Assembly (NCBI GenBank): GCA_017654855.1
Contig: CM030336.1
Location: 1,116,001 to 1,180,000, forward strand
Reading direction: 5' to 3'
DNA from: Podospora anserina
Lineage: Eukaryota
DNA length: 64,000 nucleotides
Both the position numbers and the translations under genes were made by a program. Under the pieces are notes generated by a model, which ran no database searches, was not told where the DNA came from, and worked only from the letters and a program-made list of their open reading frames with translations. Shown here one piece after another: positions 1,963 through 36,139 of this stretch; positions within the stretch are counted from its first letter, which is position 1, and each line of letters opens with the position of its first letter.

Positions 1963-4170
1963 ATGGCTACCCTACACAGACTCTCCACTGAAATCGTACT
2001 TCAAATTTGCGAGCTTTTACATGAGGATCACAGGCCCAGCTAAGTCTCGTTTGCACTGGCCAGCAAGCAATACCACGCCATCGCCACGGTGTTGCTATTT
2101 CAAAGGGTCACGTTCCACATCACAACACCAACACATCTCCAGAAGCACACAGCGAAATGCACCGCAGTTCTCGAACGGGACCACGCCTTCCGGCACGTCT
2201 GATACATTATTCTTGTGGGCTTCGACGATGAGGAGTTTGACATGCATGAGCGTTATCACCCACAATTCTTGAACGGAACCTATGAGGACGATATGATCGA
2301 TTTTCACCAGTGGAACGCCGGGCCAGCACCTTCCTTGCGGGGGGCTATCAACAACACAAGACTCCCACCGAATTCCCGATTACTCCGAGTTTCAGTGGCG
2401 TGTGAGAGCCGACAACACACCCACCACGGCAGCCTACGATACAGACAAGGCATGGGAGCCTTTGGCCAACTTGTTTCGGCGGCTTCCTGGATTACGAGAG
2501 GTCATTTATGAGTGCCCGGCTCAGTTCCCACCCTGCCTCCTTCAGGCTCTTCATGATAAGATGCCGCAGATCACACCGCGACTTCACCTCCGCACCTTCA
2601 AGCTGCGTATGATGGACGACATCATTACCGCCAACATTGTCTCCGACTCCCACGAGCTGGCCCTACTCACCTCCCCTTGCCTTTACAGTGTTTGGTTGGT
2701 GTTGGACGCTCCGGATCTGTCCGCCTACTGGTGGACAGAGTATCTTCGCAAAATTTTGGATGTTTTCTGTCAAATGATGGAAGGCCGGTTGCTTGCCTCC
2801 AACCTGGGCGAGATTGGCGGCACGCGGAACTACTCTCAGTTTCCGGGTACACGTACCGACGACATCCTTCTCGCAATTGTGAGAAATGCAGCCATGAAAA
2901 AGACCCTTCGTCCGGAAACGCTCAACATGGATTGCGCATATATCGACAACATTATGACGATAGATCCAGCTCTTGATCTTAGTATGCTCCGGACTCTTCA
3001 TCTCTTGCAAGTGCATTCTGTTTCATTCAAGGATGGGCTTTCAGCCGGAAGCTTTCCCCTACTGCGAGGCCTCTCATTGCAGTTCGTGTACCGAGATTCA
3101 TGGAGGGGGTATGACAAGTTCAAAAAGTTCATAAGGGGGTTCAGAAACCTTGAAAGTCTCCGGGAGCTGGGATGGGATTGGTCTGTGGCCTCCTTTTCAG
3201 ACTGGTCTGGAGAAATAGCCCCTTATCACAAAATTCGAAGCCTGTATTTTCAAGGCCCAGTGATGATGATGGCTAGATGGAAAGCTCGGTACAGTCCGAG
3301 TTGGAGATCAGATGTCTTGGGTATCTGTACCCTGGGGTGGAGACGTTGTCTCTGCCTATCCGCCGCTCAAACAAAGGGCGACAGACATGAGGCCCTTTTA
3401 TACCAGATAATAGGCAAGAGTTTTCCAAAGCTTAAGCATTTGGCGCTCACCCTCGAGGCACTTGCGGAAATTTTCATAGGCCGCCATCGCGGATCCTGAA
3501 TCCGCCCGCACTTGCTGCAACCTACCAGACGACGGTACAAGAGTTTTACTTGGGCCTGCTGCATAGTTCCGGCTTTATGGTAGCATCCTCCGAAAGTTAC
3601 AACAACCTCCCATTCGTCGATCAGCCCTTCCTTGCCTCTGGCTTGCCCCCCATTCTCAACAGGGAGATTCTGGGCCTGTTTGTCAACTCGGCCCTCGACG
3701 CCAAATTAGCCCGCCAGATCTTTGATTTGATCTCGTCCCCCTGCCACGCTTCCTCCGGACTGGATACTATGATGGTTCGAAGTAAGACCGTGTTGAGATT
3801 TCCAGACAGACATGAACCCTCACCGGAATAATCCTCTCACGGCCCCGTTGCCGGAACTAGGTCTAAGTACGGCCATCTCACAGCATATAATTCTTTAGGC
3901 CTGTGCTTGGCCGGATTGACGAAGGCGTGGCTGCTTGATACTCTTCACTGTGATGGTAGCGGGGAGAGAGTTAGGGTGAAGGAGATTGGGGCGCGGGCTG
4001 AGGGTTGGAGAAGGGAACGGATGGATTCGGTGAGGGTTCCTGAGGGGAGTCCATTGATGGATCATTTCCGGAAGCTGTGGCCTGGTACAAAGAAGGGTAC
4101 AAAAGGGCGGTGGGAGGACTGGGAGAGTGGGGATTTGGAGACGGAAACTCAGCAAGACTTATATGAACAT
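1963..4170 (+). pseudogene. F-box-like/LRR-like protein pseudogene
   Basis: ATG 1963 gives MATLHRLSTEIVLQICELL (F-box-like start). In-frame TAA at 2041, TGA near 2200, and several frameshifts (e.g. CAAA duplication near 3367-3374). ORF-track pieces 2402-3499, 3550-3831 and 3907 onward belong to it. End approximate. Confidence 0.7.
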
Positions 4171-11649: not shown

Positions 11650-14600
11650 GAGGTATTTCCCGATTTCTTAAGTTCCTACTTGTGTAACGCATTTCGACAT
11701 TTAACCCCAAACTCGAAACACTCGAAGCTTATATATAAAGTCGCTACTGCTACAGATGTTACACTGATAGTAATCGCTGCCGTCTGCGACATATAATATA
11801 CAAATGTCACACCAAGCTAACGACTGACTGAACGGGACTGATCTGCTTTCCATATATGTATCTGCCGAGTTAACTTGCCAGTCAACAACCTCTTCGGCAT
11901 AGCGGGAAAAGAGCTAAATAAATTAATAACTACTACCCTTCCCTGCCTATTACATTAGTGTCCGACGAATAACATCCCTAAAGTCAATGCCAGTAACATC
12001 CCTAGTAAGAATTCTATAACTTTATTATGCCCATTTCTTAAAGCTCCGAATAACGGCGTTACATCGTAGTGGTCTTTGGTGTGTAGCTCCGATAGAAACT
12101 TAGTGAAATAGAATTGCACCAACATATAATGACCGTGCCGTGTAGCATGAAATAATACCGCCCGGCTATCGTCGTCCTTTCTTATAGTATTAGCTTTATA
12201 GTAATGTAGAAGAAGCTTAACTACGTCGGTATATCCTTTATTAGAGCTAAATAAATGAGTAATACCATATATTTTTATCGAGAGCTATAGTATCGGTACC
12301 CCTGTCCAGCAAAAGTTAAACAATATTTCGGTGGTCTCCCTCTAAAGCAGCACGAAGAGCGTTGCGGTACCAGGTACCCTGTACGTTAACATCGGCACCC
12401 CTGTCCAGCAAAACTTAAATAATATTTCGGTGGCCTCCATTTACAGCAGCCTGAAGAGCGTTACCGTACCAGCCACCCTGTACGTTAATATCGGCACCCC
12501 TGTCTAGCAAAAGTTAAATAATATCTCGGTGGCCTCCATTTACAGCAGCCTGAAGAGCGTTACCGTAATCGCCGCCCTGTGCGTTAACATCGGCACCCCT
12601 ATCCAGCAAAAGTTAAACAATATCTCGGTAGCCTCCATTTACAGCAGCGTAAAGAGCGTTGCCGTACCAGCCACCCTGTACGTTGACATCGGCACCCCTG
12701 TCCAGCAAAAGTTGAACAATATCTCGGTGGCCTCCATTTACAGCAGCCTGAAGAGCGTTATCGTAATCGCCGCCTTGTGCGTTGACATCGGCACCCCTGT
12801 CCAGCAAAAGTTGAACAATATCTCGGTGGCCTCCATTTACAGCAGCGTAAAGAGCATTGTTGTAAAGGCGGCCCTGTATGTTGACATCGGCACCCCTGTC
12901 CAGCAAAAGTTAAACAATATCTCGGTGGCCTCCATTTACAGCAGCGTAAAGAGCATTGCCGTAATAGCCGCCCTGTGCGTTGACATCGGCACCTCTGTCC
13001 AGCAAAAGTTGAATAATATTTCGGTGGCCTCCATTTACAGCAGCGTAAAGAGTATTGTCGTAAAGGCCGCCCTGTATGTTGACATCGGCACCCCTGTCCA
13101 GCAAAAGTTGAACAATATCTCGGTGGTCTCCATTTGCAGTAGCCTGGAGAGCGTTACCGTAAAGGCCGCCCTGCGCGTTAATATCGGCGTCTCCCTTTAT
13201 TAAGGCTCTTGAGACTGCTGCAAGTCTACCCAGGCAAGTATAATAGAGTCTCAATTCTTGTCGAGAACCCGGTACTCTGGTCAGCATATTATCCGCCTGG
13301 TACAGCTAAACCCACCGCTAAAAAGTCGACTCGTCCTATAAAAACTTAATACTTATTTAAATAACGTCTTTTAATCTTTCCGCTAAAGCGGTATAGTCCA
13401 TCCAATACTTCGCTACATATTACGCTATCGCAAATCTCTTTTTAATTTCCCACCATCTACCCTCAATATCCGTAAGGTATGTTAAACAAGTCCTGGTAAT
13501 AATAATGCTAGTAAAATGTAGACTAAACTACCCTTCCTTTAGAAAATACTCTTTAACTGAGAAATAGGTAAGGTAGAGCTCTTTTTTAGCCCCGTTATAA
13601 GCTAAAACATTAATAACTAATATTAGACCGGGGCAGTACTATAGAATATCGTTATCGCGAAAAAGCTTGCGCTTTAGGTCGAAGCCTCGTAGCTCCTTAT
13701 CCGTCTATATAGCTATTACCTCTACAGCCTTATATAGCGTTAACGGCCGTTTATTATAGATAAAGAATTGTAGGAGACGTATGGTATCCTTCTTAAGGTT
13801 TGTTAGTATATTTTAAAGTATACGCTAATATATCTCATTGAGATCCCGGGGCAAAGTCTTAAGAGCTATTTCGATATCCCTAAGACTTATATATTTTGCA
13901 AGGCTAGCCAATTAATATACTACCCATCTAAACCTATACTAAATATTAGATATTCGTTTAGCGATATAAATAGCCGGGGAGGAAATCTATATCCCGTTAG
14001 CCCTATCTCCGACTTTATTTTAAATCCGTTCGAGAAAATTTTAAGATAATTCTTTTTCTAAGAAATCCGGACTCTACTTAAGCTTTACTATAATATAGGA
14101 GCGTATATCGGCGTTAATAACCTTTTTATTAAGTTATAAATAATTATTTTTGCTTATCCAACCGGGAATGCGTCTTAGAAACTTTTTATTTGGCCGGCTA
14201 GTAGCGATTATACGAATATAGCTTAGGTCGGGCGCTTTAAAGAATTCTATTATCCACTAGAGTAATTCCCCTATCTCTATATATTTATTTAGTATATTTA
14301 TAACTAAATAAGTATTTTTCGAATCCTTTATTATTGTATAGAGTGTTTTTATTAAACTTAAATTATTTAACTATCTTTAGTAATCGAAGTGGGATTAGTA
14401 TAGGCTATTAAGTTCCTTAGAACTAGATCCTAATTTGTAGAGTTAAAAAATAAGAGAGCGTAATACGCCGTCCACTTTCTATTTCGAAGTGTCGTTAAAA
14501 TCGAAGTAGAATTGCAGGACTATATAATCGTTCCTTTTCTGGAGATGATCTACTATCGTCGCACTAAAGATAGTTTTACTATATCCTGCTAAGCCGTAAA

Positions 14601-17649: not shown

Positions 17650-18770
17650 CAGACCCATCTTCAGTCCTCATCAGTGCCATGAGCATCAGCTAACAAAACA
17701 AAAAACACCTCGTCCTTCAAATTCTTCCCTTCGGAGGGATCCACAAATAGCCCACACAATGGAGCCGATGGGCCACACACATCTGGTGCGTGAGGCAACG
17801 GACCAGCCAGGTCAGCCGGCAGGTCAGTAAAGACTTCGTTACCCAAACGAACCTCAACAAACTCACACTCCGACTCAAGTCTGAGTAAGAAGAATGTCCA
17901 TACGCTCGCGAGCAGGCTCGGGTACCACGACACTGGAGTCACCCAGTTTGTTCGTCAAGAACTCATGCATGGCGCCAATACCTTCCCCTTCGCCGCGCCG
18001 CCCGACCTCAGCAATAGCACTGGGTCCATCAACCAGTGTCTCAACAGCTTCAGCAACAACGTACGAGGTGGTCAGGGATGCGCTCTTGAACGCATGCCCG
18101 CAACCTCATTCGTCCCAAACGTGGTGCTTACGCTTCAGTGACTTGGCGCACATAACCGCGTGGTGCATCCAGTTCCTAATCCCATGGACACCGTACCGCT
18201 CCGGTTTAAGAAAAAGGCAGTCCCCTCAGCGCCTGCCGTTGGTGATGGAAATGGAAAGGACGTGACAGTGGCCGGGGGGCAGGGGCGGGGCGAGGCTGCT
18301 GATGCGGGGCGAGCCAACACGGCGAAAGTAAAGCTGGCAGTCGGCCGTCCGGGTCTTGGACGAGATAAGCCCCCTTAACAAATGTCTGGTCACGCGAGAT
18401 GAAGAGGTAGGTGAGGTACCAGATGATGCAGGAGACTTGTATCACGCTTTCAGGAGAGTGCCACAATTTGCGGGCGAAGCCGAAGATTTCGGTGGCTGAT
18501 AGGGGGCTTGTCATGATGGCCCGTAGGTCTTGGGCGCCTTGGGCGGATGGCGGCCTGGATATCGGGTGTCTAGCAAGCGAGTTCGGCTTGGGTGAGATGT
18601 ATCCCCGTACGATCTTCTTTCTTGGGTCCTTGATCTTTGAAGCATGTCTGCTGGTGGCTATGGTCTTCCATATTTTTACTAGAAGCAGACGCACTGCTGG
18701 AACCTGTTGTAAAGTTAACGCGGGCATTCAACCCAGCACGAGGGGAGCCGAGTCAGGCTCCATAAGACAT
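17650..18770 (-). pseudogene. Possible decayed gene of unknown function
   Basis: Protein-like minus-strand stretches (CLFLKPERYGVHGIRNWMHH; LESECEFVEVRLGNEVF) broken by stops and frameshifts; no family recognised. Confidence 0.25.
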
Positions 18771-19128
18771 GGTCATTGGGCTTTAAGCGCCACCTCGAAC
18801 GCAGAGACTGCTGCTTTCGTCACATGACAGCGAGCCTTATGCCTTGAAGCTCTTCAGATAGTTCATGCTCATCCAGTGAACGTGGGTGTCTCCACTGGCT
18901 TTGCAGCCCTAAAGATTGCATTATCAACCACCACGCGGATAGTGGGCTTGGCATGTCATATGCGTTTCACTATCCATCTTATTTCTCATCAAGTGCTTAC
19001 CTTCCAGCGGCCTATCCCCAATATGTTGTCTATCGCACAACGTTGACATGAAAGCCCTGAGTTGCCACAAATATACCATAGCACCATAGTCATCGCCACC
19101 CGCAGAGCTAGGTACCGAAATAAGATGC

Positions 19129-21044
19129 CTAGAGCTTGGCGCCACCTTCATCATCATCATCCTCCTCCTCCTTACGAGCGCGAGTGACACTCAACTGACC
19201 CATCAATCTGCTGACCTCCTCCACAGACTCTCCCTCCATGCACTCCCCCTGGTCACCATCAGTCTCATCCTCCACCTCCTCCACCTCCTCCAACACCAAC
19301 CTCCCCCGCCTACCACGACCTTGAACACTCCCACTTCCACTACCCACACTCCCATGCAGGCCAGCCTGCGCTTGCATTAACCTCCCCTCCGTCAAACCAC
19401 CCCTCACGCTCCCCGCAGCTGTGACCGCAGACCCAAACGGATTCGAAGGCGTAGCCCGACTATCATGTCTACTCCCCCTCCAACCCCTCCTCTCCACCAA
19501 CACCCCCTTCACCTCCTTTTTCAGCGTCTTGATCATCTCCTCAATCACATTCTTCCTCTCCCTCACCAACATTTCCACTGCCCCATTCACCATCGACCCC
19601 TGGATGATATCCGCCACCCTCCACTTATGATACAAATTGCCGTGTCCCTTTCTCCTATCCACCTTGACGGGAGAAGCCTCAAAGTAAATGTCGCACAGCA
19701 TGCAAGTGGGCTTGGAACAGCCGATGTACCTCCCGAATTTATCCTCCATGAAGAAATCCCAATGTGCATCCTCCCTGCCAGGGGAAGGACAAAGGGTCTC
19801 CCTGCGGAGGTTGGACAAGAGTGTTACTTCTGCATGGACGGTGGTGATGCACTTGGGGTCTTTGATGGAATTTTTGAGGCCGGCGTCGAAATCCCTGGCT
19901 TGGAGCTGGGGGGAAAAGAAGTCGTAAGCGGCGTGAACTTCAACGTCGGGGGTGAGGCGGTTGAGGAGGTCTTTGCCTGTGCACATTCTTTCCTTGATCT
20001 GGAGGGGGCTGGGGAGCTTAGCTGGGGAGGGGTATGGGATGACTTCGGGGGACTCGAAGAGGTCGGGCCATTTTCCGCGGGCGACAATGAAGACGCGGAT
20101 GGCGAGGGTGTAAGAGTGGAGGCGGCCGATGGCGTGGCGCGTTTCGATCCAAGGGGAAGCGGGGCTGTCCTTCTCTGGGGACGAGTTCGAGACGTTCTCC
20201 GAGGAGGGGGCTTTGAGGCGGAGGAAGGAGGCAAAGGAGGAGGTGTAGGATTTTTTGAGGGCCATGAGGAGGCGGTAGGTTTCTTGGGTGACTGTTGAGG
20301 TGAGATGTTAGTTGCGGACAGACTTGGGACGAAGATAACATTGGGACTTGGCATGGCACATACAGGACAGGAGATCATGGGGCCAAGAGGCCACCGCTGC
20401 CTCGGCAATCGGAAGTAGCTCCCGCAGGCGTCCTGCCATTGTGGCTGGTTTGTGTCAGCTTTAACTCCCATCGATAGATTTCCAGGTGCCAGTAACTTAC
20501 CCTCAGCGCCAGAGTCCTTGGCGCAGCTCTCTAGGCAAAGTCCAATATTGTCAACCAATGTTCTGAGGTACTTGTACAGGCGCCACCGACAGTACACGAT
20601 GACCTTCTTCAACAGACTGTCCGAGACAGCCTTGACCTTGGCTTCGTCTTCAAGATCTTGCCCTTTCATGCTTCCAAGTACTTTCAAGATCTCGTCAGAC
20701 AAAAACTCCTTGACCCTGGCCATCTGTGTCTTGGTGCGACTATTAGAGGCAATCCAGTATTCCACCTGACCAGGTTGGACAATCATGGCGCTCGTGACGG
20801 TGTCTCCCCCATGCTTAGTATCGCAAATTTGCGCAATCTTGTTGACGAAGCACCTATACAGGGCGCGATCTTCGTCGGGGGTGGTAACAATAGAGTCATC
20901 GTCCGACGTATGGGGGTTCGACACATGGGGAAGTGCATCCTTCAGGGCACAGAAGAGGTGAATGGCTCCATAAAGCCGCTTTGCCTGGCTGGGAGCTAGC
21001 GGGACGGGTGTGGAGGTTTGAGCGGGGAGTGTTGCGCTGGGCAT
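19129..21044 (-). CDS. old: OTT_1508-like nucleic-acid deaminase (OLD-type), copy A, about 595 aa
   Basis: Exons 21044-20501, 20444-20364 and 20291-19129 (1788 nt, in frame; GT-AG introns with CTRAC branch sites). Motifs CFVNKIAQICDTKHGGDTVT, VHAEVTLL, YIGCSKPTCMLC, HGNLYHKW. Confidence 0.9.
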
Positions 21045-22130
21045 GTTGAGGGAATGTTTGGACGGAATGAAGGGGGCCAGAAGATAATTCAGTGAAGGAT
21101 TTGAGATGTTTCGATGGGAAACTAGATTAAGAACCGTGATCTGGTTAGTAGAGCACACGAAACGAGAATGACGGGAGAAGCAACTTGAAATTTATAATCA
21201 TCCCACCATCTCAGCTAGGGACCTGGTGATGTCGTCTGTCGTCTTCGCATTGTCCGTATGCCCCTCTCCCCTCTATGCCTCCTTGGCGGGAGGATACAGG
21301 AAATCTGCCTCGAACAGACTTGGGTCGCAACCTGGGCCAACTCACTGGTCAGTGATTGGAGGATTGGCTGGTTGGGTGACCACATCGCTCGACCCATCAC
21401 CAACCAAAGGTTTCAAGGCGTCCATCGGTAACAAACAGAACGAAGAGTCGAGAAATGACGGTCAGTTTTGTTCTTTGAGATTCTGGCAGGAAAGCAGAAG
21501 TTTGTGGGCGAGCTGTGGCAGAATGATTGACTTGTGGGGGGTCGGTCCAATGATAACAGTTCGACTGGGTCCAGTTGGCGTTCCGCCGTGTCACCGTGGC
21601 AGCGCTGTCTTGCATGCCGAGACTGTGGGCCTCGGCCTCGGTGCATATTCCGGCAGTGCGCTAACCATGCCGGCGCGCAGGTTGCCTTGGAGGCATAGGG
21701 ACCCCGTTGCGGGCCTCAAACCCGCTCCTCCCAGAACAGTGACGCCTCCGGATTGCGAACCACGGTGGGCCAGCACAGTGTCCCTCGGCCAGCTGATTTG
21801 GGCTTAGTATTTGAGTAACCGTATTTGCCCATGAAACAGAATGTCAGTTGTCTTGGAGGGTCCAGTGGAACACGCGCTGGGTTTGCATCTACCTTATGTA
21901 ATGCTCAAGTTGTCAGGGAGAAGTTCTACATTGCGAAGCTAGGGAGCATCGAGCGGTAAGGGAACGATGTCGAATGACCTTTGGTTACAACACTGTTACT
22001 GACCGGTGGTGTGGGAACGATAGTCGCCATCGCCTGCTACTGTCACCAACTCAACCAACACATTTGTCCTCATCCCCACATCACAACACTTTCAGTTGAC
22101 GCTAAACGTTCTGCAGGCTTGCAAATTGGC

Positions 22131-23530
22131 ATGCTTGAGTTTCTGTAAGTCCCACACCCATTGTTACCAGGGATAACGGCCTCAGATGGGACGGAAGCCA
22201 GGCGAGGTTGGGATTTCGGAACAACAGTGGTAACGGTCCAGGTCGAATAGTACCTTTTCACAGGTCCCTAAGCCTGTGTTTGGTGCCTTTTCCCGCGGCA
22301 ACATCGCAGACCAGGGTGCTGAAAGCGAATCGGACCAGGCCTGCCCTGACACTATTAGCGCTTTGCATCCAGATTGCCACTGGTTCCCCATGCCTTCTGG
22401 CAGGTTGTCCAAAGGAAAACAGCGAGCATCGGAATGGGCGCCTTACGACCACCCCTCTTCTCTAATGGGTCATGAAACGTACGAGGAGCTTGTTCCGGGG
22501 CAGGGGGGCATCGATCCCAGGCTCCTACAAAATGACTTCGCTCCGGCACCTCCTGAACCTTTGGACTATCCGGCTGGGCCGACTGAGTACATGGCTCCGG
22601 CTGAGGCCCAGCACGATACACCAGCTCTAGTTCCATCCACACATGTTATAAGAAGCGCTCAGATTGACTACACCAACGACTACCACGACGCTCAGAATCA
22701 GTTTCACACGTCCCAGGTCGACAGCTTTGTGCCATCTTATCCTTCGAGTTCCGGCCACGAGTCTTAGTACTCCACGGCCCAACAGAACTCGAGTGTGCCT
22801 GCAACTTTGGATCTTGCAGTACAACAAGAAGCACAAACTGACCAAGACTTTCGACTTTTCTTCTCCGACCTTTCAGTTTCGAATCCACCTTTCTCCGCTT
22901 CTGGGACAGCTTCAACGATTCCTTCCACCACTCCTTACACCTACCAAACGTTCGACACCAACAACAGCCAACTCCCCTGCACAATCATTCCTACAGCAAT
23001 GACGTCTCATGATATTGTACACACCAGTTACGAAGAACAGGGCTACTCAGTGGACCCCAGTCTTTACCAACTTGAAGACACCTCTTACTACACGGCTGGC
23101 GAAGCTTCTACTTCCTATGCACAGCCCTACTCACAAGAACCCGACACCACCGAAGCCTCGCCGACCAGCTCTGAGCCCAATAAATGTCCTGTTTGTGGAA
23201 AGTCCTACAGGCGGAAATGTGATCTTGAGTTCGTCCACCCTGCATCACGCATCCTCTGAGTCTTCTTTAGCTGACACCCCACCCACAAACAGCAAGCATA
23301 TGAACAATCACACCAAACGCCGCCAGTGCCCTTTCCGCGACTGTGAAGGTGGTGGAGCCGAGACTAAAGACCTCAATCGACACCTGTGGACTCACCATCC
23401 CGAATATGCCTCTGCAGAGAACATCCCCAAGGACGAGGAGTGGTGCGGCTTCCAAGGGTGCGGGTATCATGGACGTCGGGACAATGTGAAGAGACATAGG
23501 GACAACCATAACCACTGGCCTTCGGCGTAA
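22131..23530 (+). CDS. zao: C2H2 zinc-finger transcription factor (ZAO-type), copy A, with in-frame UAG at 22765-22767
   Basis: ORF-track pieces 22276-22767 and 22795-23259 are in the same frame, separated only by TAG. Intron 23229-23292 restores finger 1 (CPVCGKSYRRKCDLDKHMNNH); fingers 2 and 3 follow to stop 23530. Start is either ATG 22131 (with intron 22145-22250) or ATG 22390. Confidence 0.85.
22744..22792 (+). other. Predicted mRNA stem-loop presenting the premature UAG (candidate edited A at 22766)
   Basis: TCGAGTTC 22744-51 pairs with GAACTCGA 22785-92; GGCC 22753-56 with GGCC 22776-79; GAGT 22759-62 with ACTC 22769-72; loop is CTTAGT. Confidence 0.7.
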
Positions 23531-24423
23531 GAGAACACAGTTGTGGTTGGGGTCATTGGATACAATATTGGGTTCTCAATGGTTTTGCACCAAGTCATGA
23601 CTTTCTGGGCATCATTCTGCTTCTTTGAAGATTGTTATGTTGGTTTTCCTCTTGTTTCTTTTTGATGAAGGCTTGTTACGACTCATGAGGACACGATGAT
23701 ATCTCTACCCCTGTTTTAGCTTTGGCTTTTATGTCTCCACTCTTTCTTTGGGACCATTCTTGGAGTCCATTCTTGCCCACTTCTCATGTTTTTGAGCTAT
23801 TCTTGGTTGTTTTTTGAGCTTGGACGAAGACCAGGGCCTTTCTTTAGACAGATATTTCCTACAATGCAACAACCCCCTCTTTGCACTTTGGATTTGGCTT
23901 TTGCAAAGGAAGAGAAAACTCAGTATCCGCAAACACTGGCTGGGGTCTACATTCACCCAACTAGCGATATAGGGCTGACACCAAGCAAGAACTGTGCTGC
24001 CTTGTGGCCAAGAAACATCACCGCCAGTCGTTGAGGGCTAACGAACCCGCACACTGCAGTCGACTGCACCTTTTGCACAGGTGTACGATTGGGTGCTCTG
24101 GAATGGTCGCTGGGCAAGTCTTTCACGAGACGAAGTGGAATGTTATCATTAGGGGAAGGGGGGGTAACTGCTGAGTGGTGGAGTTGGAGGAAACATACAT
24201 CATCGTCAGGCTCTACAGTAAGAAGGTCTCCAGACGGCGCATGGAAATAACAAACACACTTTGAGTGTATCTCTAGACAAACTGACAAGACAACTTGAAG
24301 AATCCTTCCCTCTGACGTAAATCTGGGTCATAACATCATCACAAAATGCCAACTTAAACAAGAAACCAAAACAAGCAGCAACCCATGCTTGTATATTCCC
24401 AATCTTTGGAACAAAACACCCTA

Positions 24424-25449
24424 TCAACGACGGCCGTGAACAAGCATATGTCGCTTCATGTTGTCCGCCCTCTGAGTCCGTCCGCAGATCTCGCACCTCT
24501 TCTTGTGCCTTTGGACCCTCTTATCAGCACGAACATCAGCACGGTCACCATGGCTCTTAAGTTTGTGGCGATCCAGATCCTTCTGCTCTGCAAATCCTTT
24601 GCCACAGATGTTGCACTCTGTTGGCCTGCGGTGATTTTTTTGATGCTTTCTCAGCTCACCGGGCAGATTGAACACTTTTGATCCTTTGCACCCAAGATAG
24701 AGACAGTAGAACTTCCCGTCAATGATTGTGTACGGAACTTCAGATTTGGCCGGGTTGGTTTGGCTGGGTGGCTCGGTCATCGAGGCGGGGAGGGGATAGA
24801 TGATAAGATCACGTGCGTTTGCAGCAGGGAAAAGGTCGTTTAGGGTAGGCAGCACATTTATATGGTGTGTGAAATTTGCCGACAGGGTGTCGTTGACGGG
24901 GTCGTTGAAGGAAAACAGGAGGTCGTCGGGTAATGTTGAATCGGAACCATATTCTGACTCATCTGGTGTCAAGATGGTTGAATTGCTGGATATCTCGGAT
25001 GATTGAGACGAAGAGCAAGGAAATCCGAACTCATTGTCGGGTGGCGTATGAAATGAGACCACGGCGATTTCTGGAGTGGAAACGCTAGCTGAATATCCGT
25101 GTGGCGAGCTCTACGAGCTCAGTACTGGGACTTCAGTGCGCATCTCCGCTACAGAATGCGGAAAGTGGGCCAAGGGGTCAAAAGAGCCCCCATCGTAAGT
25201 GATTTGGTGGTTGGTAGTTGCAACTTGTAGGCCTCGTTGCATCATCAGAAGCGATGGGTTCACCGTTACACCTTCGTCAACGTTTTGGGAGAAGGTGTAT
25301 GGCTCCATCGCCATCGCCTGTGAGCCAAGTCCAACCCCTTGCCCTTGAAGGGGAAGGTCAACAATCCAAGGATGCTCCTCATTTTGTTCTGTGAAAGCAT
25401 CTGATTCGGAAACCCAGTTTGGGGACTGGTAACTGTATACGCGCAACCC
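24424..25449 (-). CDS. zao: C2H2 zinc-finger transcription factor (ZAO-type), copy B, with in-frame UAG at 25113-25111
   Basis: ORF-track pieces 25446-25111 and 25062-24424 are in the same frame, separated only by TAG. Three fingers: CLYLGC...HQKNH, CNIC...AEQKDLDRHKLKSH, CEIC...RADNMKRHMLVH. First in-frame ATG is 25314; an intron at 25498-25450 leaves the 5' structure unresolved. Confidence 0.85.
25089..25136 (-). other. Predicted mRNA stem-loop presenting the premature UAG (candidate edited A at 25112)
   Basis: Sense strand reads CTGAA-GTCC-cagtac-TGAGCTC-GTA-GAGCTCG-ccacac-GGAT-a-TTCAG: inner GAGCTC/GAGCTC stem with UAG at the apex, plus outer CTGAA/TTCAG and GTCC/GGAT stems. Confidence 0.7.
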
Positions 25450-26293
25450 CTGTGATTAGCAACTTGACGCTCCTTGGTGAGACAGAGGTGGTACTCACTG
25501 GTGGTTAGACATCACCGGCGATACAGGAAACGCCTGGAGAGGTACCAAAACAGCAGCCCGTGGTCGTATCAGACTCGGATGAATGTATAGGTACCCTGTC
25601 AATGAAGGTGGAACGAGCTATGTATGTGGTGTGCAGCTCGGGAGCTGCAAAGAGATGGTGGAGATGGAGGAGCACACGATCCCAGCAGCAGCGCAGAAGA
25701 ATGCCAGCTCAAATACCGACCAAGCTCTTTCCGTTTGCTAATCCTCCGCTTCACAGATTGGAAACGGCAGGAAACCTTCCCCGTCGTCTGCCGCCAGATT
25801 TGTTTGCAGTTTCAGTTGTGAGGTCCAAGGCACCCAATGGATCCAAACAACGTCACACAGATCCCACAAATGAGGATGTCGCACGCGGGCCGCGAGAGGG
25901 AGGGTTACATCGAGGTAGGCCTACTGCATTAGTGCCGCCTACCGCAGCTCTTTACGTTGCATTCAAACCAATCAATCATCTCTGCCATGCCGCGTCGGTC
26001 CATATTGGAACCCTCCGGGTTGTACGATGTCAGTGGGGCTTGAAAATACACAGCCTATCTTGTTTGCTACCTACGTGGTCGTCCTGGACCACTGAATAAA
26101 GCAGTGATCGAATGGCAAAGTGTGGATTTGTTCAGATGTTTGGCATGTCGGTCTTCAACTAAAATATACATCAAGTAAGTGCTAAATCTCTACCCTCGGC
26201 AATTTTCAGAGTTGAATCTCACCCGTCGACTTCACAGCTACGAACGTACTGAGTAGCTACTTGGCTGCTATTCTTTTAGTAGATTCAAACATC

Positions 26294-27935
26294 ATGAGTT
26301 CAGAGGAACAAACAGCCATCACATTGCCACCCAGCATGCGCAAACGATTTTACGAGGCCCTCATGATCATTTGCAGCATGACTCACATTTTTTCAAGAAC
26401 AGAAAACGGCACCAGGTCCCCGAGTCTTGAGCTCGAGGGGGTTGCTGACAAGAACTCACAAGGAACCTTTTTCTGTTTCGTGAACAAGCTTAGCCAGGTG
26501 TGCGACAGTGAGAGAGGGGGTGATACCGTCACCGCCTTTTCGGTCTTGCAACCAGACATCATCGAGTATCGCTTCACTTCAAACAGCAGAACGGAAATAA
26601 GTTTCCAGACAACAACCCGATTTGTGACAAAGCTTCTGAATACCCTTGGAGGAATTTCAGGCCCCGAGCTCCAGGAGGCGCGACGCAATGGAGAGGACTC
26701 CCTTCTGTTCTTGACTCTGATGCAACAAATACTCGAGTTCAACCGTCCCCGCATTACAAAGTTTCACATCGACTACCAAATGGCCAGACACCTCGAATTC
26801 TGCGCCAATGCCTGCACGGATGCAGAGGTAGCGACTCTTCTAAGAGCACTCAAGACTTTGGCTGATGCTTCTCTCGAGCCACTCTTATCTGATTGCGAAT
26901 GTGGGTATCATCAGGTCTTGGAGGAAGCTACACGCTTCATAACGTCACAAGACCCTAACTGACCCCGTTCCAGTTGCCATTAAATGCCAGCTTCTTCTCC
27001 GTACCATCAGCAGTATTTTCCGGAATCCCCACGTTAAGGAATACCTCCGGGAACGTACCCGCGAGGATCGAGAAAAGGCCAACAAGACACCCTGGACTGA
27101 AGTCTACCACTCTCTTGGCCGCTTGCAATCTTACACAATCGCCGTCGCAATTTTCATCACCGCACGCCAGCGCTGGCCCGAACTCTTCGACCCTGGATTT
27201 AAAGTGACCCACGTCCCCTCCAGCACACCCGCTCCTTCTCCCTCAATCAGAGGCTCTCCGGAACGTATCCTTTCACGGCTGACCACAAAGGAGGCCGTTC
27301 TCAAAGCTTTCAAAGAGGGCACCACCGACGCAGCCGGCCACCAGTCCCACCTCACTGATCTGACCAAAAAGCTCGAAAGCACCATCCGATCCAAGTGCAA
27401 GAAATTCCACCCCATCGTTCACGCCGAAGTTCACCTTGCCGATCATATCCTCCGCGAGTTACGCACAAACAACTCAGGACTTCGTTTCTACAACGAAGCC
27501 GCCTTCGGTCGGTACATTGGCACCTCTAAGCCAACTTGTCACCTCTGCCACTCGTACTTTGCCTGTCCATTTCTCTCTTCAACAGGTCGCATTCAAGTCC
27601 GTTCCAGTTCCCACAACTACTACCATAACTGGCGGGTTCCACACGTATATCCGGAGGACGGCGCCGAGGCAGAAAAGATGAGGAATAAGGTGATGGGGTG
27701 GATGATTGAGGATGTGAAGGCGGAGGCGGAAAGGACGGTGGTGGAGAGGTTTGCGGTGAGGAAGGGGCATGATAGTAACACGTACCCTTCCATGCCGGAT
27801 ACAGATTCGGTTGCTTCTATGCAGGTTGGTTATGGGGGGAGCCAGTCTGGTGCTGATGAATCTGTGAGAAGGCTGGGCGCGATGGATGATATAATTGCTA
27901 GTTTTGGGGGGATGAGGGTGAGTGTTGAGGAGTAG
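26294..27935 (+). CDS. old: OTT_1508-like nucleic-acid deaminase (OLD-type), copy B, about 522 aa
   Basis: Exons 26294-26900 and 26974-27935 (1569 nt, in frame). Motifs CFVNKLSQVCDSERGGDTVT, VHAEVHLA, YIGTSKPTCHLC, SHNYYHNW. Clear but divergent paralogue of 19129-21044. Confidence 0.9.
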
Positions 27936-28142
27936 AGTGTGCAGCCCCTTCACCTTCGTCATTTTCACACTCATTTTCAGAGCGTATCAGGTGTTTTCCA
28001 GTCCGCACTGCGGCATGTGTATTCCAATCTAAGCAGCATCAAGCCAGCTACATCAATTCTAAACAGTAACCTAACGCCATGCTACACTTAACACCGTCCA
28101 ATGCAAACGCCCAACTCCTCAGAAAGACACGGTCAATACCGC

Positions 28143-28550
28143 TTAAGCTTGGGTGCTGGCGCAATCTCCACCTCCCAAGCCACCGCTGCACAGACGGGTG
28201 CAGCCAATACCAAGATCAGCAGTCTTGATGCACTCATCATTCTTGACGCGCATGATGAGGTCGCCCTTGCAGTTGGGGCCCTCGCTGTCCTGGTAGGCGA
28301 ACCAGGTATCGGAGAAGGAGTCAGTCCTGATGGACTTGATGTCGGAGGGGATGGGGGCATCACCGGTTGAGAAACCGTTGAAGACCTTCTTGTCGACTTC
28401 GGTGCCGCTATGCAAATTTAGTTAGTGGAAATCCATCTGGGGAAGAGCATGGAGAACGTACCAGTTCTCGTCGCTGAAGATCTTTGTGGCGGCCCCAAAG
28501 GCAGTGCTGGCGCAGCCGGCGATGAGGATGATGGTGGTGGTGGCACGCAT
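28143..28550 (-). CDS. Small secreted cysteine-rich protein, 117 aa
   Basis: Exons 28550-28462 and 28407-28143 (GTACGT...CTAAC...TAG intron). Signal-peptide-like MRATTTIILIAGCASTAFG; six Cys in the mature part. Confidence 0.85.
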
Positions 28551-29741
28551 TTTGGATGATTGATTGGGAAGGGTTTGAAGATGTGGTTTGTTGTTGAGTT
28601 GTGAATTGGTTGTGTTGTGATTGTATTGCTGTTGTCTTGCTGTTTGTTCAGAACTTCTTGCATCGTGGAAAGGAACAGGTCTTTTTATGTCTTCGTGACG
28701 ATAGCGCTATGTTATTTTCTGAAGCCTGTTATCTCCATTCGAAACAGTACGGCCGACTATACGCCATGGCTACATGGCTGTAGTCATTTCCCTCCCAGGT
28801 CTCTTGCTTTGTTTCCTCTAGGCGAAGTGTATCTCGGATTTCTCGGGTCATGACCTGTGCACCGTATGGCTGGATCCAATTGTGAACTTAACACTCACCA
28901 TGGAGCACCTCAGCACTACCTTAAGCTCGTTATCATTCGTTTCATCGGTTGTACAGGCCTAGGCTTCCTTGCTTGGCTACATGAATCTGGCTGGTGCCAG
29001 TTATGGACCCAAAACTTGTAACGGATATGTCAGGATATCTCTCGTGGCCGTTGTCATGTTTCACAGCCTATATTTGGATTTTTCCACTGCCAGGCGATGT
29101 CGGACTTGGTATCTCGCACTCAGAATCGTCTGGAGTTGTGAAGGAGCCTGATATGCCGCGGCCCGCAATGGACCAGATGAGGCGGCCAGATGTCACGGCC
29201 ACCCACGCGGTTCTCGTCGATCATATATCACTCGATACCTGATATTATTAACATCGTCGTGACGTTGGAGCTCGTTTGATGTTGACTCAATTCTCGATAC
29301 ATCCTGGGTGGGTGGTCCGTGCTTATCACCCCTCTGAAGCCCCTGAGCCCCTGAGCTCTTAGGCTTGGCAAATTAAAGAAGAGCATAGTTGGGCAGTGAG
29401 AAAAGCCAACAGAGATGGTTGAACTCAATTCCCGAACAATTTTGGTACCATCTACGATAGTCAACATTGCGATTTCAATGACATCCTCCCAGAAACGACA
29501 ATTCGACAGTCGGCCAGAGACTTGCTCGAATCTAGCTTAGCCGGGGAGCAGTTATCACTGCGGGCACCAATGAAACATGGTGCGATACTCACCAATCACA
29601 GCATTGCGCTCCGATAAGCTGAACCCAGGTGCATTCAAGTGCCAACAACGCGAATTTTGGAGGTTGGTTGAGAACCCCCACAGCCACATCTTGCGAATTT
29701 CATTCCACATCAATGCCTAGTCAAGGCACCTACTCAGTATC

Positions 29742-30755
29742 ATGGATTCCCCAGAGGGCGAGTTTGACGGCAACGATTTTGCCAACAACCTCTTCAGCGA
29801 TCTCGCCCCCCTCCTGACGCTTTTCGGGGAGCAAGTCACAAAACAGTTCCTGTCCATGAGTGTGGGATGGGCCGACAACGTACTCTTGGCAATGGGCCCC
29901 CTGGGTATCTTGACCATTGTTGTGAGCGCCATTCGTGTAGCGGGTGAGACCGTACCAAACCTCAAGGCGCTCATTGGCAGAGCAAGGGAGGACAGGGCCA
30001 GCGTTGAAGTTGAGTTACTCTCTTCAACATCTAGGGAGGTTTGCGAACTGTGGACAGGAACCCAAATCGTTCGAGTACGCGGACAACCCCTCATATCTCA
30101 GCCGTTCATCATGACCGACACGGGTAACGTCTATCCCCTGTGGAATGATGTGGCGCAGGGGACTTTTGAGGTCAACTTCATGGCGCAAGACTGGGATCGC
30201 GAAACCAGCTTGTTGGCAAAAGTGCCGCCCAACCTTGGCTTGAATATTAGCGGTGCTATCCCTTCGAACCGTGAAATGTGGATGTGGGCTGCTCTGGGAA
30301 CTGTCCTGCAACTAGCCTCGCTGGTTGTGAGCGGGACTGTCACTTATCGTTGGAACTTGGCCCAGGTCGAAGTTCCCACCACCACATACGGATATCCCTG
30401 CTATCTTCTGGGCACTCTGCTTTTGACTCTCGGGGTTCTCCTGTGCGGACATATAGTTGAGACTGTCAGTAAAGAAAGGACTTTCAGATGTAAGGCAAAA
30501 ATGCGAAAGAGAGTGCGCATTTTTCGCATTCAACTGGCCGCCACCGTAAACGACCAGCACTTTGACAGTTATCTTATCTTCAACTCCCCCGAGAATCCTG
30601 ACGTCTATGCACCATTCTATCAGGGCATGAAGAAGAATACTCGGTATGTTCATTACCCTCCAGCCCGAATACCGCTGTTTTCTAACATCAATATTTGCGA
30701 GATATTATGCAATTGCAGGATCAGCGCTGTCATTCATGGGCTTTGTCACACAATA
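29742..30755 (+). pseudogene. Membrane protein of a fungal family usually bearing C-terminal ankyrin repeats; 3'-truncated by a Fot1 insertion
   Basis: Conserved N-terminus DFANNLFSDLAPLLTLFGEQVTKQFLS...LAMGPLGILTIVVSAIRV...ELLSSTSREVCELW and hydrophobic segments. Probable intron from 30644. Interrupted at TA 30754-55; no continuation seen beyond the transposon. Confidence 0.7.
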
Positions 30756-33067
30756 ACGTACTTTATAAGCGAGTCGGTCATATAAGTGGGCCGGTCACTT
30801 TTCGACCGCGACGCGTCCTCCTACACTCAATATCAACTTTCTCTACAACCCAACATGCCTCCTACCTTAAATGAAGCCAGGATAATCTTAGCTCTTAAAG
30901 CTATTTAAAAGACTCCGAAATTAAGCCTCCGGGCCGCAGTAAAGCTATATAATATACCATTCTCAACCCTCCGTAACCGACGCGCCGGCCGGCCTACACG
31001 ACGCGATACTACGCCCAAATCGAAGAATCTCACTTAATCCGAAGAGGATACTATTATTTAATGTATTATTAAGCTATATACGAGAGCTTTTCCACCAAGA
31101 TTACGTAGTATAGAAAATATAGTTAATTAATTATTACGTATATACGACGCGGCTTTTATTAGTAAGCTCTAGGTATATAACTTTATTAAACGTTAGCTAT
31201 AGTTCTATACGCGTTTTACGCGTAAATAAAATTATTAAAGGGCTAAGTACGAAGATTTAAAGGTTATAACCGAGTAGTTTACGTTAGTACGAAATATTAA
31301 AACTAAGTACGGTATTATAAATAATAATATTTATAATTTTAACGAAATTAGGTTTATAATAAATATTATTTTTATAAGTATAGTAATTACGATATCGGAC
31401 GGTTTTAATAAAGTAAAATTAATTTAATTTAATAACCGTAAATAAATAACGGTAATTTAAAGAATTAATACTTTTAATTAAACTATTTTTCTTTTTATTA
31501 TTTTAACCGTATAATACTATTTTATTAATTAATATACTAAATATAATTTATAATTTATTTAATATATTATAATTATTAATAATAATTAAATTATTAATTT
31601 AAAAAATAAAATTAAATTAAGTATTTCGATTATTATATAGCGTCCTATAAAAAGGATAAATATCGATTATTAATCTTAAACGGTTACGAAAGTTATTATT
31701 TAACCGAATTCGAATATTATTATTAATAAACTAACGTTATTACGCTTTATATACCTCTATACTCTTCCTACCTTCTCTAATTACTCGATATTAATTACTT
31801 TAGGCCGTTAAAATAAGTGTACGGTCGTTAAATTAAGGACTTAATATATATATAGATATTAATTATATAAGTAAGCTCGAGTTCCTTTATACCTTCCGCG
31901 AGGCTTTTTTTGCCTTTATAATAAAGAAAAATATATAGGGTAGCTTTGCGGGTGCTAGCCTTATACCGTATGATTTAAAGAAGGTAATTTCTAAATTAGA
32001 TATAAAGCTTCGTACGTTAATATCTTTAAATTTACGGCCCGGTACTATATAACTTTGGGTCTCTTAGATACTATATAACCCTCGAGAAACTAACTTATAA
32101 TTAACGTTTATTAAGACTCGCATTACTAACTATTAAAATAACTTCCCGACTTTAATAATAATTATAATAAACTAACTTACTAAAAGTATAACGGTTATAA
32201 TATATTAAGTGGCCCTCTTGCAGGTAGAGGTCTCTTCGCTCCGTAAGGCTAATAAGGCACTAAGCAAACGCCGGAGAGTTAAAAAAATACGCGTGAGACT
32301 TGGAGGGTTACTTACTGTACAAGAAGCACAAAATCTACTGGATTAGAAAGCCGTGGATGGGGAGATATGACGAACCCCTGTACAGAACCTCTGAAAGGGA
32401 TACGGGTTGAAGGTAACTTCTGACAATTGGTCCGGTGTAGCTAAACAGTGCACAACAAGATATCTCGATATAAACACAAAATGCCGTGAATACAAGCTTA
32501 AATTGCATACTGCGGAACTATCTATCTACACCAGCCAGTTCCTCCGTATATATAGACTTTAGGACCGTGAGGTGCTTACCCTGCTATGGCCCCGATCACT
32601 CCTAGCACATTGCATCCTGCATTGTGCTCGCCGTGCTATGCCTCTGATCATCCTTAGCATCTTGCATCCTGCAGACTGCTCGTGAGCCTTGGCGCTATAG
32701 CACCTTTGTCCAGGCCTGATTGGCTTGTTCCCTAACTTCCTTAATAATTGGCTAAGGACGTCCTGCGCCCCACATGTGGCGCGACCTGCCGTTGGGTTAA
32801 CTGTGACAGGAGAGAGTATAAGAAACGCAGCCGGATAGTAGTAGTACAGGGGGGGGCTCGTACGAAGGTTCGGTGCTGTGGTGTGTGCGGCAAGCCTGGC
32901 TATAATGCACGCACTTACCAGGAGGCTGCAGAATCATCTGATTCAGCTGTTTCTGATATAATTATAGTTAGTTCCTAATATTGGTGTATTACAATTGAGG
33001 GTAATTATAGTAGGGTAGTGAAAAGTGGCTCACTCGCTTATATGGCTCACTCGCTTATAATGTACGT
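30756..33067 (+). mobile_element. Fot1/pogo DNA transposon, copy 2, containing a solo LTR
   Basis: TA-flanked TIRs ACGTACTTTATAAGCGAG... / ...CTCGCTTATAATGTACGT. Length is 1864 bp after removing the LTR and one TSD. Collinear with copy 1. Confidence 0.95.
32366..32808 (-). mobile_element. Solo LTR family A (crapaud-like), lightly RIPed
   Basis: 443 bp with T(A/G)TGAC...TGTGACA ends and a perfect 5-bp TSD GGAGA (32361-65, 32809-13). Confidence 0.95.
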
Positions 33068-33254
33068 TAATGTACGTTACTTTTTGCCGCCCGTTTTATT
33101 TTTAAGTTTTATTTTCTGCCGGCGCTTATGCGCCTAAGGTGCATTGGAAGACGGAGGGGAGTGAATGTAGAAGATGGAAAAAGAAATAGTCCTTCACTTT
33201 TACTTGTCCCGAATTCTTCGCAATTCAAAGGCCATTCTATTGGTATGCCCTTTA

Positions 33255-33986
33255 AGCACTGTGACTAACCGGGAGGAGCAGCTCAAACATAGATCCTTGG
33301 TCAGGAAAGCTTTAGCTACGCTCTCGCCCACGCTAATATATTCCCTCCATTATACCCACCTCATCAGTTTTATATTTGTTCTTCTTCTTGATCCAGGTCA
33401 CGGTATTATATAGGTTAAAGAAGCCGTTGATCTTTTCCGGGGTAGCTCCGTTAATGCGGGAGTAGTTGATCTCTTGCCTAGTTTAGTTTTAATCTCTGGG
33501 CGCCTTCGAATAAAGTGGGATACCCAGTGTTTTCCGGGCTTCTTTTCTCCCTAGCGCTCCAGTATATGGGTAGCTAGAGCAAATGGGGGCCAACGGACTG
33601 GTCGTTGGGTCTTCTATTAGGGCTCAAAGTCTGTGTACGTCAAGGAGAATGGAAAACGAATCTGGACCACTATACTTGAGTGTATCTCACAGGATGGCCG
33701 ATGTCTCACGCCCTACGTTATTTTTAAGGGCAAGAAGATTCAAAAGCAGTGGTTTAACGAAGACTACCGTGAACACTGGTATATTAATGCCACAGAGGAA
33801 GGCTGGACTAGCAATGACATTGCTCTTATTTGGTTAACGAAAGTCTTTATCCCTGAAACCTAACCTGACGATAATTCCGGACCACGGCTTCTTAATTACG
33901 ACGGTCACGGTAGCCACTATACCGACGACTTTATAATTAAATGCTTCTGGAATAATATTTACCTTCTTTTCTTACCTCCCCACATA
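33255..33986 (+). mobile_element. Relic of a second pogo/Fot1-type transposase (HTH-CENPB + DDE_1) with an internal inversion
   Basis: Plus strand: WTTILECISQDG...PYVIFKGK, GWTSNDIALIWLTKVFIPET, RLLNYDGHGSH, LLFLPPH. The KHWVSHFIRRRPEI...TDEVGIMEG part is on the minus strand at 33343-33581. Confidence 0.85.
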
Positions 33987-35848
33987 ACGTATATTATAAG
34001 CGAGTCGTATATATAAGCGAGTCGTATAGTTTCTACCACGACGCGTCCTCCTTACACCTAATATTAATTTTTTCTATAACCTAACATGCCTCCTACTTTA
34101 AAGGAAGCCAGGATACTTTTAGCCCTTAAGGCTCTCTAAAAGGACGAAAAATTAAGCCTCCGAGCTATAGCTAAGCTTTATAACGTACCACCTATAACTC
34201 TCTCTAACTGACGCGCCGGCCGGCCTATACGACACGATACTACGCCCAGATCGAAGAAGTTTATTTAATCCGAAGAAGAGACTATTATTTATTATATTAT
34301 TAAGTTATTTACGCGAGCTTTTTTATTAAAGTTACGTAATATAAAAAATATAATTAATTAATTATTACGCATACGCGACGCGCTTCCTATTAATAAACTT
34401 TAAATATATAATTTCGTTAAACGCTAGCTATAGCTCCGTATACGTTTTACACGTAAATATAATTATTAGTAAGTTAAATATAAAAATCCGAAAGTTATTA
34501 CCGAATAATTTATATTTATATAAAATATTAAAGTTAAGTACAGTATTATAAATAATAATATTTATAATTTCGACGAAATTAGGTTTATAATAAATATTAT
34601 TTTTATAAATATAATAATTATAACCTCGAACGGTTTTAATAAAGTAAAATTAATTTAATTTAATAATTATAAATAAATAATAATAATTTAGAAAGTTAAT
34701 ATTTTTAATTAAACTATCCCGCCCTTTATTATTTTAATTATATAATATTATTTTATTAATTAATATACCGAGTATAATTTATTATTTATTTAAAATATTA
34801 TAATTATCAATAATAATTAAATTATTAATCCAGTAAATTTAAATTAAATTAAATATTTTAATTATTATATAACGTTTTATATAAAAAGTAAATATTAATT
34901 ATTAATTTTTAATAATTATAAAAATTATTATTTAATTAAATTCGAATATTATTATTAATAAAATAATATTATTACGCTCTATATACCTCTATATTCCTTC
35001 TACTTCCTTTAATTACTTAATATTAATTATTTTAAGCCACTAAAATAAATATACGGCCATTAAATCGAGGGCTTAATATATATATATATTAATTATGTAA
35101 ATAAATTTAAATTCTTTTATATTTTTCGTAAAACTTTTTTTATTTTTATAACGGAAAAAAATATATAGAGTAACTTTATAGGTACTAACTTTATATTATA
35201 TAATCTAGAGAAAGTATTTTTTAAATTAAATATATAGTTTTATACGTTAATACCTTTATTTTTAAGGCCGGGTACAATATTTCTTTAAGTATTTTAAATA
35301 CTATAAAACCCCCGAAAAATTAATTTATATTTAATATTTATTAAAACTTATATTATTAATTATTAAAATAATTCCCCGACTTTAATATTAAATATTATAG
35401 ATTAATTTACTAAAAATATAATAATTATAATACACTAAATAGCCCTCTTATAAGTAAAGGTCTCTTCGCTCCATAAGGCTAATAAAGTATTAAGTAAGTA
35501 CCGGAAAGCTAAAAAAATACGTATACGGCTCGGAGCATCACTTACTATGCAAGATATATAGGATCTATTAGACTAGAAGGCCGTGGGTGGGGAGGTAGTG
35601 GAAGAAATATAGCCGGATGGCGGTAGTGCAGGGGGGGCTTATACGACGGTTCGGTGCTGTAGTATGTGCGGCAAGCCTAGCCATAACGCGCGCACTTACT
35701 AGGAGGCTCGGGAATTATCTAATTCAGCCGTTTTTGATGTAATTGTAGTTGCTTCCTAATGTTGTTGCGGTATAATTAAGGATAGTTGTTGTAGGGTGGT
35801 GGAGACTGTACGACTCACTTATATGTACGACTCGCTTATAATATACGT
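33987..35848 (+). mobile_element. Fot1/pogo DNA transposon, copy 3, full length, heavily RIPed
   Basis: 1862 bp; TA at 33985-86 and 35849-50; TIRs ACGTATATTATAAGCGAGTCGTA... / ...TACGACTCGCTTATAATATACGT. Confidence 0.95.
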
Positions 35849-36139
35849 TATAAGTTTTTCACTCAGCCTACACGGCACGGTTTTCCTATATAAATAGCAC
35901 CAAAAGTCCCGGCGCACTCGTTACAAAAAAGGGTAAAACGGTGTAAGAAGAATAAAAATATATTAATCTATTAGCCAGCAAAAGCAAGGCAAGTCTCGCG
36001 GTAGTAAACTTTTAAGTCATAGACTGTACAAAACACGAATACCGTTCTCTATCAGATTATCCACCATGTGATGGGGTTGCCCTCGAACTCCTGTCCATCT
36101 GCTTAAAAACGTACCTCGCCTCGCGCCCGGCAATCTCCG

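Follow-up and report, generated by a model that had tools for sequence, protein, structure and literature searches.

A premature UAG in the loop of a stable RNA hairpin: a candidate editing site in a ZAO-like zinc-finger gene of a Podospora-like genome

The premature UAG of zinc-finger gene A, one of two ZAO-like genes in the 64,000 nt of DNA analysed (the window), lies in the apical loop of an RNA hairpin, hairpin A, whose stability exceeds chance. We estimate a probability of about 0.75 that hairpin A is the substrate of premature-stop-correction editing in an OLD-ZAO module, with the neighbouring, divergently transcribed OTT_1508-like deaminase or its paralogue as the most likely editor. 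Translation of an unedited gene A mRNA would stop at 22765-22767 and result in a 176-aa product that lacks the fingers. Hairpin A would present the adenosine at 22766 unpaired in its apical loop, preceded by a U at -1, for conversion to inosine by an adenosine deaminase, and decoding of the resulting UIG as Trp would then give the full 409-aa C2H2 transcription factor. We infer the editing, the identity of the editor and an antiviral role of the module from the system published for Neurospora.

Table 1. Positions in the window of the genes, UAG codons and hairpins of the locus
Feature	Position	Strand	Description
Deaminase gene 1 (OLD-like, 595 aa)	19129..21044	-	CDS exons 21044-20501, 20444-20364, 20291-19129
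Zinc-finger gene A (ZAO-like)	22131..23530	+	CDS exons 22131-22144, 22251-23228, 23293-23530
Hairpin A	22744..22792	+	8+4+4 bp helices, loop CUUAGU
Hairpin A, outer helix	22744-22751 with 22785-22792		8 bp, exclusively Watson-Crick
Hairpin A, middle helix	22753-22756 with 22776-22779		4 bp
Hairpin A, inner helix	22759-22762 with 22769-22772		4 bp
Hairpin A, loop	22763-22768		CUUAGU, 6 nt; A is the fourth loop base
Hairpin A, ninth outer pair	22743 with 22793		seen in longer contexts
Premature UAG, gene A	22765..22767	+	codon 177 of 409; presumed edited adenosine 22766
Zinc-finger gene B (ZAO-like)	24424..25512	-	CDS exons 25512-25499, 25432-24424; Pfam zf-C2H2 E 1.9e-8
Hairpin B	25064..25159	-	~35 bp imperfect stem; 7-bp apical helix, loop GUA (3 nt)
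In-frame UAG, gene B	25113-25111, A at 25112	-	tip of hairpin B
Deaminase gene 2 (OLD-like, 522 aa)	26294..27935	+	CDS exons 26294-26900, 26974-27935; PF14441 E 2.2e-17

Zinc-finger gene A and hairpin A

The introns of gene A, and of the other three genes, were taken from RNA contig joints and the spliced sequences were then translated. The coding sequence begins with the ATG at 22131, and finger patterns place the C2H2 fingers downstream of the UAG. At the 5′ end, RNA contig joints define UTR exons that extend back to at least 21671 and an intron at 21955-22022. The TAG at 22765-22767 terminates an ORF that spans 22276-22767 and, this TAG aside, the frame is open from 22276 to 23259. In the spliced gene, 176 open codons precede the stop and 232 follow it. 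The conceptual product has 176 aa when the UAG is read as a stop and 409 aa when it is read as Trp. No homologues of the N-terminal 328 residues were found among 885 candidates of near length range. Deaminase gene 1, which is arranged head-to-head with gene A and transcribed divergently from it, encodes a protein that matches Pfam PF14441 (OTT_1508_deam, E 1.3e-17) and has the motif HAE ... GxSKPTCxxC. A GxxK motif preceding CxxC is visible in both deaminases of the window.

The initial annotation, made from the letters of the sequence, had described 8-, 4- and 4-bp complementary segments nested around a CUUAGU loop that contains the in-frame UAG, and this arrangement at 22744-22792 is confirmed both by the sequence and by RNAfold. 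The 8+4+4 bp hairpin is the MFE and also the centroid structure, with an energy of -18.6 kcal/mol, compared with -9.18 +/- 2.57 kcal/mol for 200 dinucleotide-preserving shuffles (z -3.67). None of the 200 is equally stable, and a hairpin no more stable than shuffled controls, the outcome that the annotation had listed as contrary to its proposal, is therefore not what is observed. Folding in a longer context had also been proposed. Within 101 nt hairpin A persists and gains a ninth pair, but the longer stretch as such is not unusual (z -1.23, 24/200 shuffles).

Synonymous resampling, in which the peptide was fixed and codons were drawn from the usage of four local genes, generated no equally stable variant of the 51-nt stretch of hairpin A in 2000 attempts (z -4.11); for 105 nt around the hairpin, 27 of 1000 variants were equally stable. 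When positions within +/-400 nt of the site were compared in 61-nt folds, 15 of 801 (0.019) were loop positions of hairpins that equalled or exceeded A in strength. In the predicted fold, the adenosine at 22766 is unpaired with a probability of 1.00. Hairpin A has an extended stem of 16-17 bp and contains no G-U pairs, and the antisense strand folds better than the sense strand (-24.6 vs -19.6 kcal/mol). There are no Rfam matches at the gathering score in the region 18000-29000.

A second deaminase/zinc-finger pair

Deaminase gene 2 and zinc-finger gene B are also arranged head-to-head and divergently transcribed, and gene B likewise has an in-frame UAG, which gives a product of 111 aa when read as a stop and of 340 aa when read as Trp. 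Hairpin B, with the UAG at its tip, has an MFE of -40.6 kcal/mol (z -5.11) that is equalled by none of 200 shuffles and by 2 of 1000 synonymous resamplings, and the site ranks second of 801 positions. Hairpin B folds equally on both strands. Given that the antisense strand folds better in A and that the two strands are equal in B, strand asymmetry provides no sign of RNA-level constraint in the window.

Between the deaminases, identity amounts to 32% across 270 aa (E 1e-34), and between the finger regions of the two zinc-finger genes to 33% across 85 aa (E 1.6e-9). The N-terminal regions of A and B have no similarity and are unalignable. Similarity of the deaminases and finger regions, together with N-termini that cannot be aligned, argues that the locus is an old inverted duplication of a head-to-head deaminase/zinc-finger pair. 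A and B are without N-terminal similarity, and yet in each the UAG lies at the apex of a hairpin that ranks in the top 2%. This occurrence in both diverged paralogues is the strongest internal argument for a selected structure.

The 9-mer TCCAAGGCA is present in exactly two copies in the 64-kb window, at 21683-21691 (-) and 25824-25832 (+). There is one copy in each of the short deaminase/zinc-finger intergenic regions, and the two are in mirror orientation. By chance 0.27 copies would be expected, and two are reached in 3 of 100 shuffles, for a motif that was picked post hoc. Apart from TCCAAGGCA, the repeats shared by these promoter regions are only short, chance-level matches. TCCAAGGCA may be a promoter element common to both pairs, serving for instance the autoregulation reported for ZAO.

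Transcripts across the two UAG codons

RNA contigs from runs X1 and X14, which come from different studies, have nine GT..AG introns of the four genes spliced, and document transcription of a module with two full pairs. The contigs from both runs cross both UAGs unspliced. As spliced RNA contigs run unbroken across them, both UAGs are present in the mature mRNA, outside introns. No edited form is seen in these runs: the X1 and X14 contigs, in which minority variants are dropped and for which growth conditions are not given, all have A at 22766 and at 25112. Such unedited contigs fit conditional, partial editing, yet lend no support to editing.

The zinc-finger genes have convergent 3′ ends that are bridged by a single X1 contig (23293-25432). 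The X14 contigs at these ends leave a gap of 364 nt between 23874 and 24238. Overlapping convergent transcripts of A and B are possible. The cover of the small RNA-like runs X21 and X22 is confined to 24278-24927, where the 3′ part of gene B encodes the fingers. This cover recalls the short C-terminal zao-1C transcript of Neurospora (PMC12754623); contig cover cannot locate the start of a transcript.

Relatives in named fungi

The best matches to deaminase 2 are in Podospora pseudopauciseta (92%, full coverage) and Podospora bellae-mahoneyi (94%), followed by proteins of Triangularia and Cercophora at 61-65%, with 36 proteins in total at E <= 1e-5. These matches place the window in a fungus of the Sordariales that resembles Podospora and is not N. 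crassa. The HAE and PxCxxC columns are invariant in all 12 aligned OLD-like sequences. Gene B has homologues in Cercophora samala (57%) and Triangularia setosa (45%). The proteins annotated for these homologues, P0001 and P0002, respectively, are gapped exactly over the UAG, by 9 and 19 residues, and judged from the alignment these gaps probably stem from false introns placed over a conserved premature stop. In each of these two fungi, contigs of equal size (162023 in Cercophora samala, 43770 in Triangularia setosa) encode the ZAO-like protein and the OLD-like one, which suggests that ZAO and OLD are linked there.

Relatives in metagenomes

A scan of metagenomes with the OLD alignment identified 58 loci that encode OLD-like deaminases. 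Thirty were assessable, with at least 3 kb of DNA upstream of the deaminase match, and 20 of the 30 have a C2H2 gene upstream on the opposite strand. In 15 of these, a ZAO-like finger region was found by tblastn, always on the opposite strand, and the other 5 were recognized by C2H2 patterns; neither a tblastn finger region nor a C2H2 pattern was found in the remaining 10 assessable loci. A metagenome scan with the ZAO-B alignment gave 120 pattern matches, none of which was confirmed.

The 20 positive loci, with the addition of L001, make 21 that collapse to 13 distinct genes. Each of the 13 carries, ahead of its finger-coding part, an isolated in-frame TAG flanked on both sides by 45 or more open codons. 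In the five with an unbroken finger frame (L005, L012, L015, L049 and L051) the stop closest to the fingers is always TAG, and L049 has a further in-frame TGA upstream; when the window pair is included, the stop is UAG in 7/7 unbroken-frame genes. The frames of the other 8 genes are broken, presumably by introns, and their TAG candidates were picked by eye. L025 has two in-frame TAGs, at 3075 and 3273, 198 nt apart, as is likewise the case in L026 and L027. The first L025 TAG is outside a hairpin loop and the second is in a weak loop. One of the L025 TAGs may be within an intron.

Folding of 61 nt around 16 UAG sites, 2 in the window and 14 on metagenome contigs, placed the UAG adenosine in a hairpin loop at 11 of them, against a background of 0.21-0.29 of positions (binomial p 6e-4, or 2.5e-4 once one clade is collapsed). 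Combining the positional ranks gives p 9e-6, a value that is no more than indicative, given the autocorrelation of positions and the post hoc choice of some sites. The strong metagenome cases are L051, with a stem of ~24 bp, L019, L002 and L017, which rank 3, 4, 15 and 21 of 801, respectively. No hairpin loop is present in the 61-nt folds of the remaining 5 sites (L005, L012, the first TAG of L025, L036 and L001); in L005 and L012 a small hairpin loop is back in 93-nt folds. Covariation among orthologues, proposed in the initial annotation as a further check, could be followed in four alignable orthologues. A 10-bp hairpin at the TAG is kept in L001, L002, L003 and L005, with one pair double-changed in 2 of the 4 and one cell of the four-orthologue alignment broken, but there is no consensus for 11 sequences, for which MAFFT and RNAalifold returned 0 consensus pairs with several of the TAGs misaligned.

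Comparison with known editing systems

In Neurospora crassa, the OTT_1508-like proteins OLD-1 and OLD-2 edit the premature UAG of the adjacent zao-1 and zao-2 to UIG, and this editing of the zao mRNA leads to a full-length transcription factor (PMC12754623). The OLD proteins prefer RNA hairpin loops and a U at -1, as does the tRNA-deaminase-derived Tad2-Tad3-Ame1; zao-2 is the sole target of OLD-2, and OLD-1 acts more broadly (PMC12754623). Mycoviruses induce the OLD-ZAO module, the Argonaute QDE-2 keeps it repressed by an RNAi route described as unknown, and the old-1/zao-1 pair is fast-evolving (PMC12754623). The primary work, by Honda, Yokoyama and Suzuki (Cell Host Microbe 2025), is used here as summarised in PMC12754623. 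According to the available part of Iyer et al. 2011 (PMC3239186), the OTT_1508 clade belongs to the Helix-4 division with Tad2/TadA and has a GxxK motif before CxxC.

The window has the sequence features of this system, namely an OTT_1508-like deaminase, an adjacent C2H2 gene, a premature UAG in the mRNA and the target A in a hairpin loop; a U at -1 is automatic for any UAG. Neurospora likewise has two deaminase/C2H2 pairs in which the UAG precedes the finger region and its A, with a U at -1, occupies a hairpin loop. One Neurospora pair is fast-evolving, and here gene A is without homologues (among candidates of near lengths) and gene B has them. The two differ in organism, and the comparison is of genes and RNA contigs here with Neurospora genes as described in print. 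The extended stems of the window hairpins, 16-17 bp in A and 35 bp in B, are also unmentioned in PMC12754623.

The initial annotation had proposed that hairpin A is the recognition element for a deaminase and resembles the anticodon loop presented to tRNA adenosine deaminases. The first of these proposals appears to be essentially the published OLD-ZAO mechanism and matches it in the kind of system (PMC12754623), but the resemblance to an anticodon loop is no more than loose, with loops of 6 and 3 nt in the window and none predicted at 5 of 16 sites in 61-nt folds. A U-preceded adenosine is displayed in the loop of a stem-loop, as it is for TadA and ADAT2-ADAT3. In the tRNA anticodon arm, a stem of 5 bp closes a 7-nt loop whose third base is the A. 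This geometry is not found here: the window loops have 6 nt, with the UA as bases 3-4, and 3 nt, the stems are longer and interrupted, and the loops of the relatives range from 3 to 8 nt. The likeness to the tRNA anticodon arm is purely functional. Animal ADARs also recode mRNA by A-to-I editing, but they edit adenosines inside double-stranded stems whereas here the A is unpaired in a loop.

A further published counterpart is CHE1 of Fusarium graminearum, a zao homologue (PMC12754623). As given in the available part of PMC11169179, its premature TA437G, which is edited, precedes three C2H2 fingers and falls in a hairpin loop predicted for related species of Fusarium. This premature stop has led to three kinds of annotation error. 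Errors at the site are apparently shared by the annotated homologues of Cercophora samala and Triangularia setosa. CHE1 differs from the window genes in that, in the same part of the source, its editing is ascribed to ADAT and oxidative stress and no neighbouring deaminase is mentioned. A search of main article texts found no Podospora paper that describes this locus; in its available text, a Podospora transcriptome preprint names ADAT genes only.

Alternative explanations

The alternative that survives best, although we consider it unlikely, is that the UAG is edited by the general Tad2-Tad3(-Ame1) enzyme of Sordariomycetes during sexual development or stress, with a hairpin that merely suits the anticodon-loop-like taste of that enzyme. 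Tad2-Tad3-Ame1 too favours hairpin loops and a U at -1 (PMC12754623) and frequently edits UAG (PMC12754623 and the available part of PMC11156358), and the hyphal editing of the zao homologue CHE1 was ascribed to ADAT by its authors in the part of PMC11169179 cited above. The editors reported for Neurospora zao-1 and zao-2 are, however, OLD proteins (PMC12754623). The targets of Tad2-Tad3-Ame1 are spread genome-wide over tens of thousands of sites, with no linkage to the enzyme, whereas each target in the window has a dedicated neighbouring deaminase of another clade. Head-to-head deaminase/zinc-finger pairs in 20 of 30 assessable metagenome loci and OLD/ZAO on equal-size contigs in two named fungi disfavour this alternative, because such linkage would be hard to explain were the neighbour irrelevant.

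Appreciably less probable is a function of the hairpin in translation or mRNA fate, such as termination, read-through of the UAG or nonsense-mediated decay, rather than in editing. Ribosomes might in principle be influenced by a stable structure that spans a premature stop, and the X1/X14 contigs, in which minority variants are dropped, contain no edited RNA. Known stimulators of read-through are, however, located downstream of the stop codon and not around it, unlike hairpin A, which surrounds the stop. In addition, the stop is UAG in all 7 unbroken-frame genes, the only stop that is made sense by a single A-to-I change, and an editing mechanism is published for the same gene family. That hairpin A is a chance inverted repeat in a decaying pseudogene, with which an N-terminal region of 328 residues without detectable homologues (in the near length range) and an antisense strand that folds equally well or better would agree, is hardly credible for a spliced and expressed gene with 176 + 232 open codons, a hairpin equalled by 0/200 shuffles and 0/2000 synonymous resamplings (51 nt), and an arrangement of the UAG that recurs in paralogue B and in 13 distinct metagenome genes.

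Editing of the UAG in hairpin A by a deaminase of the OLD-ZAO module is thus the reading that we favour. The stems of A (16-17 bp), B (~35 bp) and L051 (~24 bp) far exceed what a loop preference requires, and it is conceivable, as a long shot, that they carry extra information, either as a pair-specific code that assigns each zao mRNA to the OLD paralogue editing it or as a dsRNA element that couples the module to RNAi.

Surroundings of the locus in the window

Gene islands of ~50-55% GC alternate in the window with AT-rich blocks at 30001-36000 and 40001-64000, in which the GC content falls to 15-17% at 56-64 kb. These blocks (15-30% GC beyond 30 kb) look like repeats subjected to repeat-induced point mutation. 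A 775-aa ORF at 36140-38467 (-) has a sub-threshold match to APH phosphotransferase (21.1 bits vs a cut-off of 23.2), and a 224-aa ORF at 12529-13203 (+) has a marginal FUR match with no stretch that passes alone. The APH and FUR matches are unlikely to be meaningful.

Implications

A mechanism of the OLD-ZAO type is already in print for Neurospora (2025), and the window is a rediscovery of it that adds no new principle. With Podospora proteins as the nearest deaminase relatives, at 92-94% identity, the locus appears to be an undescribed member of the OLD-ZAO family, distinct from the published locus. It adds a transcribed two-pair module in a Podospora-like genome, and hairpin stability beyond the coding requirement has been quantified. 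Likely annotation errors in public proteomes, in the form of false introns or truncated gene models at the UAG, are flagged. A premature UAG is also recurrent in zinc-finger genes located beside OLD-like deaminases, with 13 further distinct genes in metagenomes. This recurrence bears on the remark, in the available part of PMC13327615, that the generality of the zao-type mechanism across fungi is unknown, and it suggests that a premature UAG may be general in the ZAO-like gene family.
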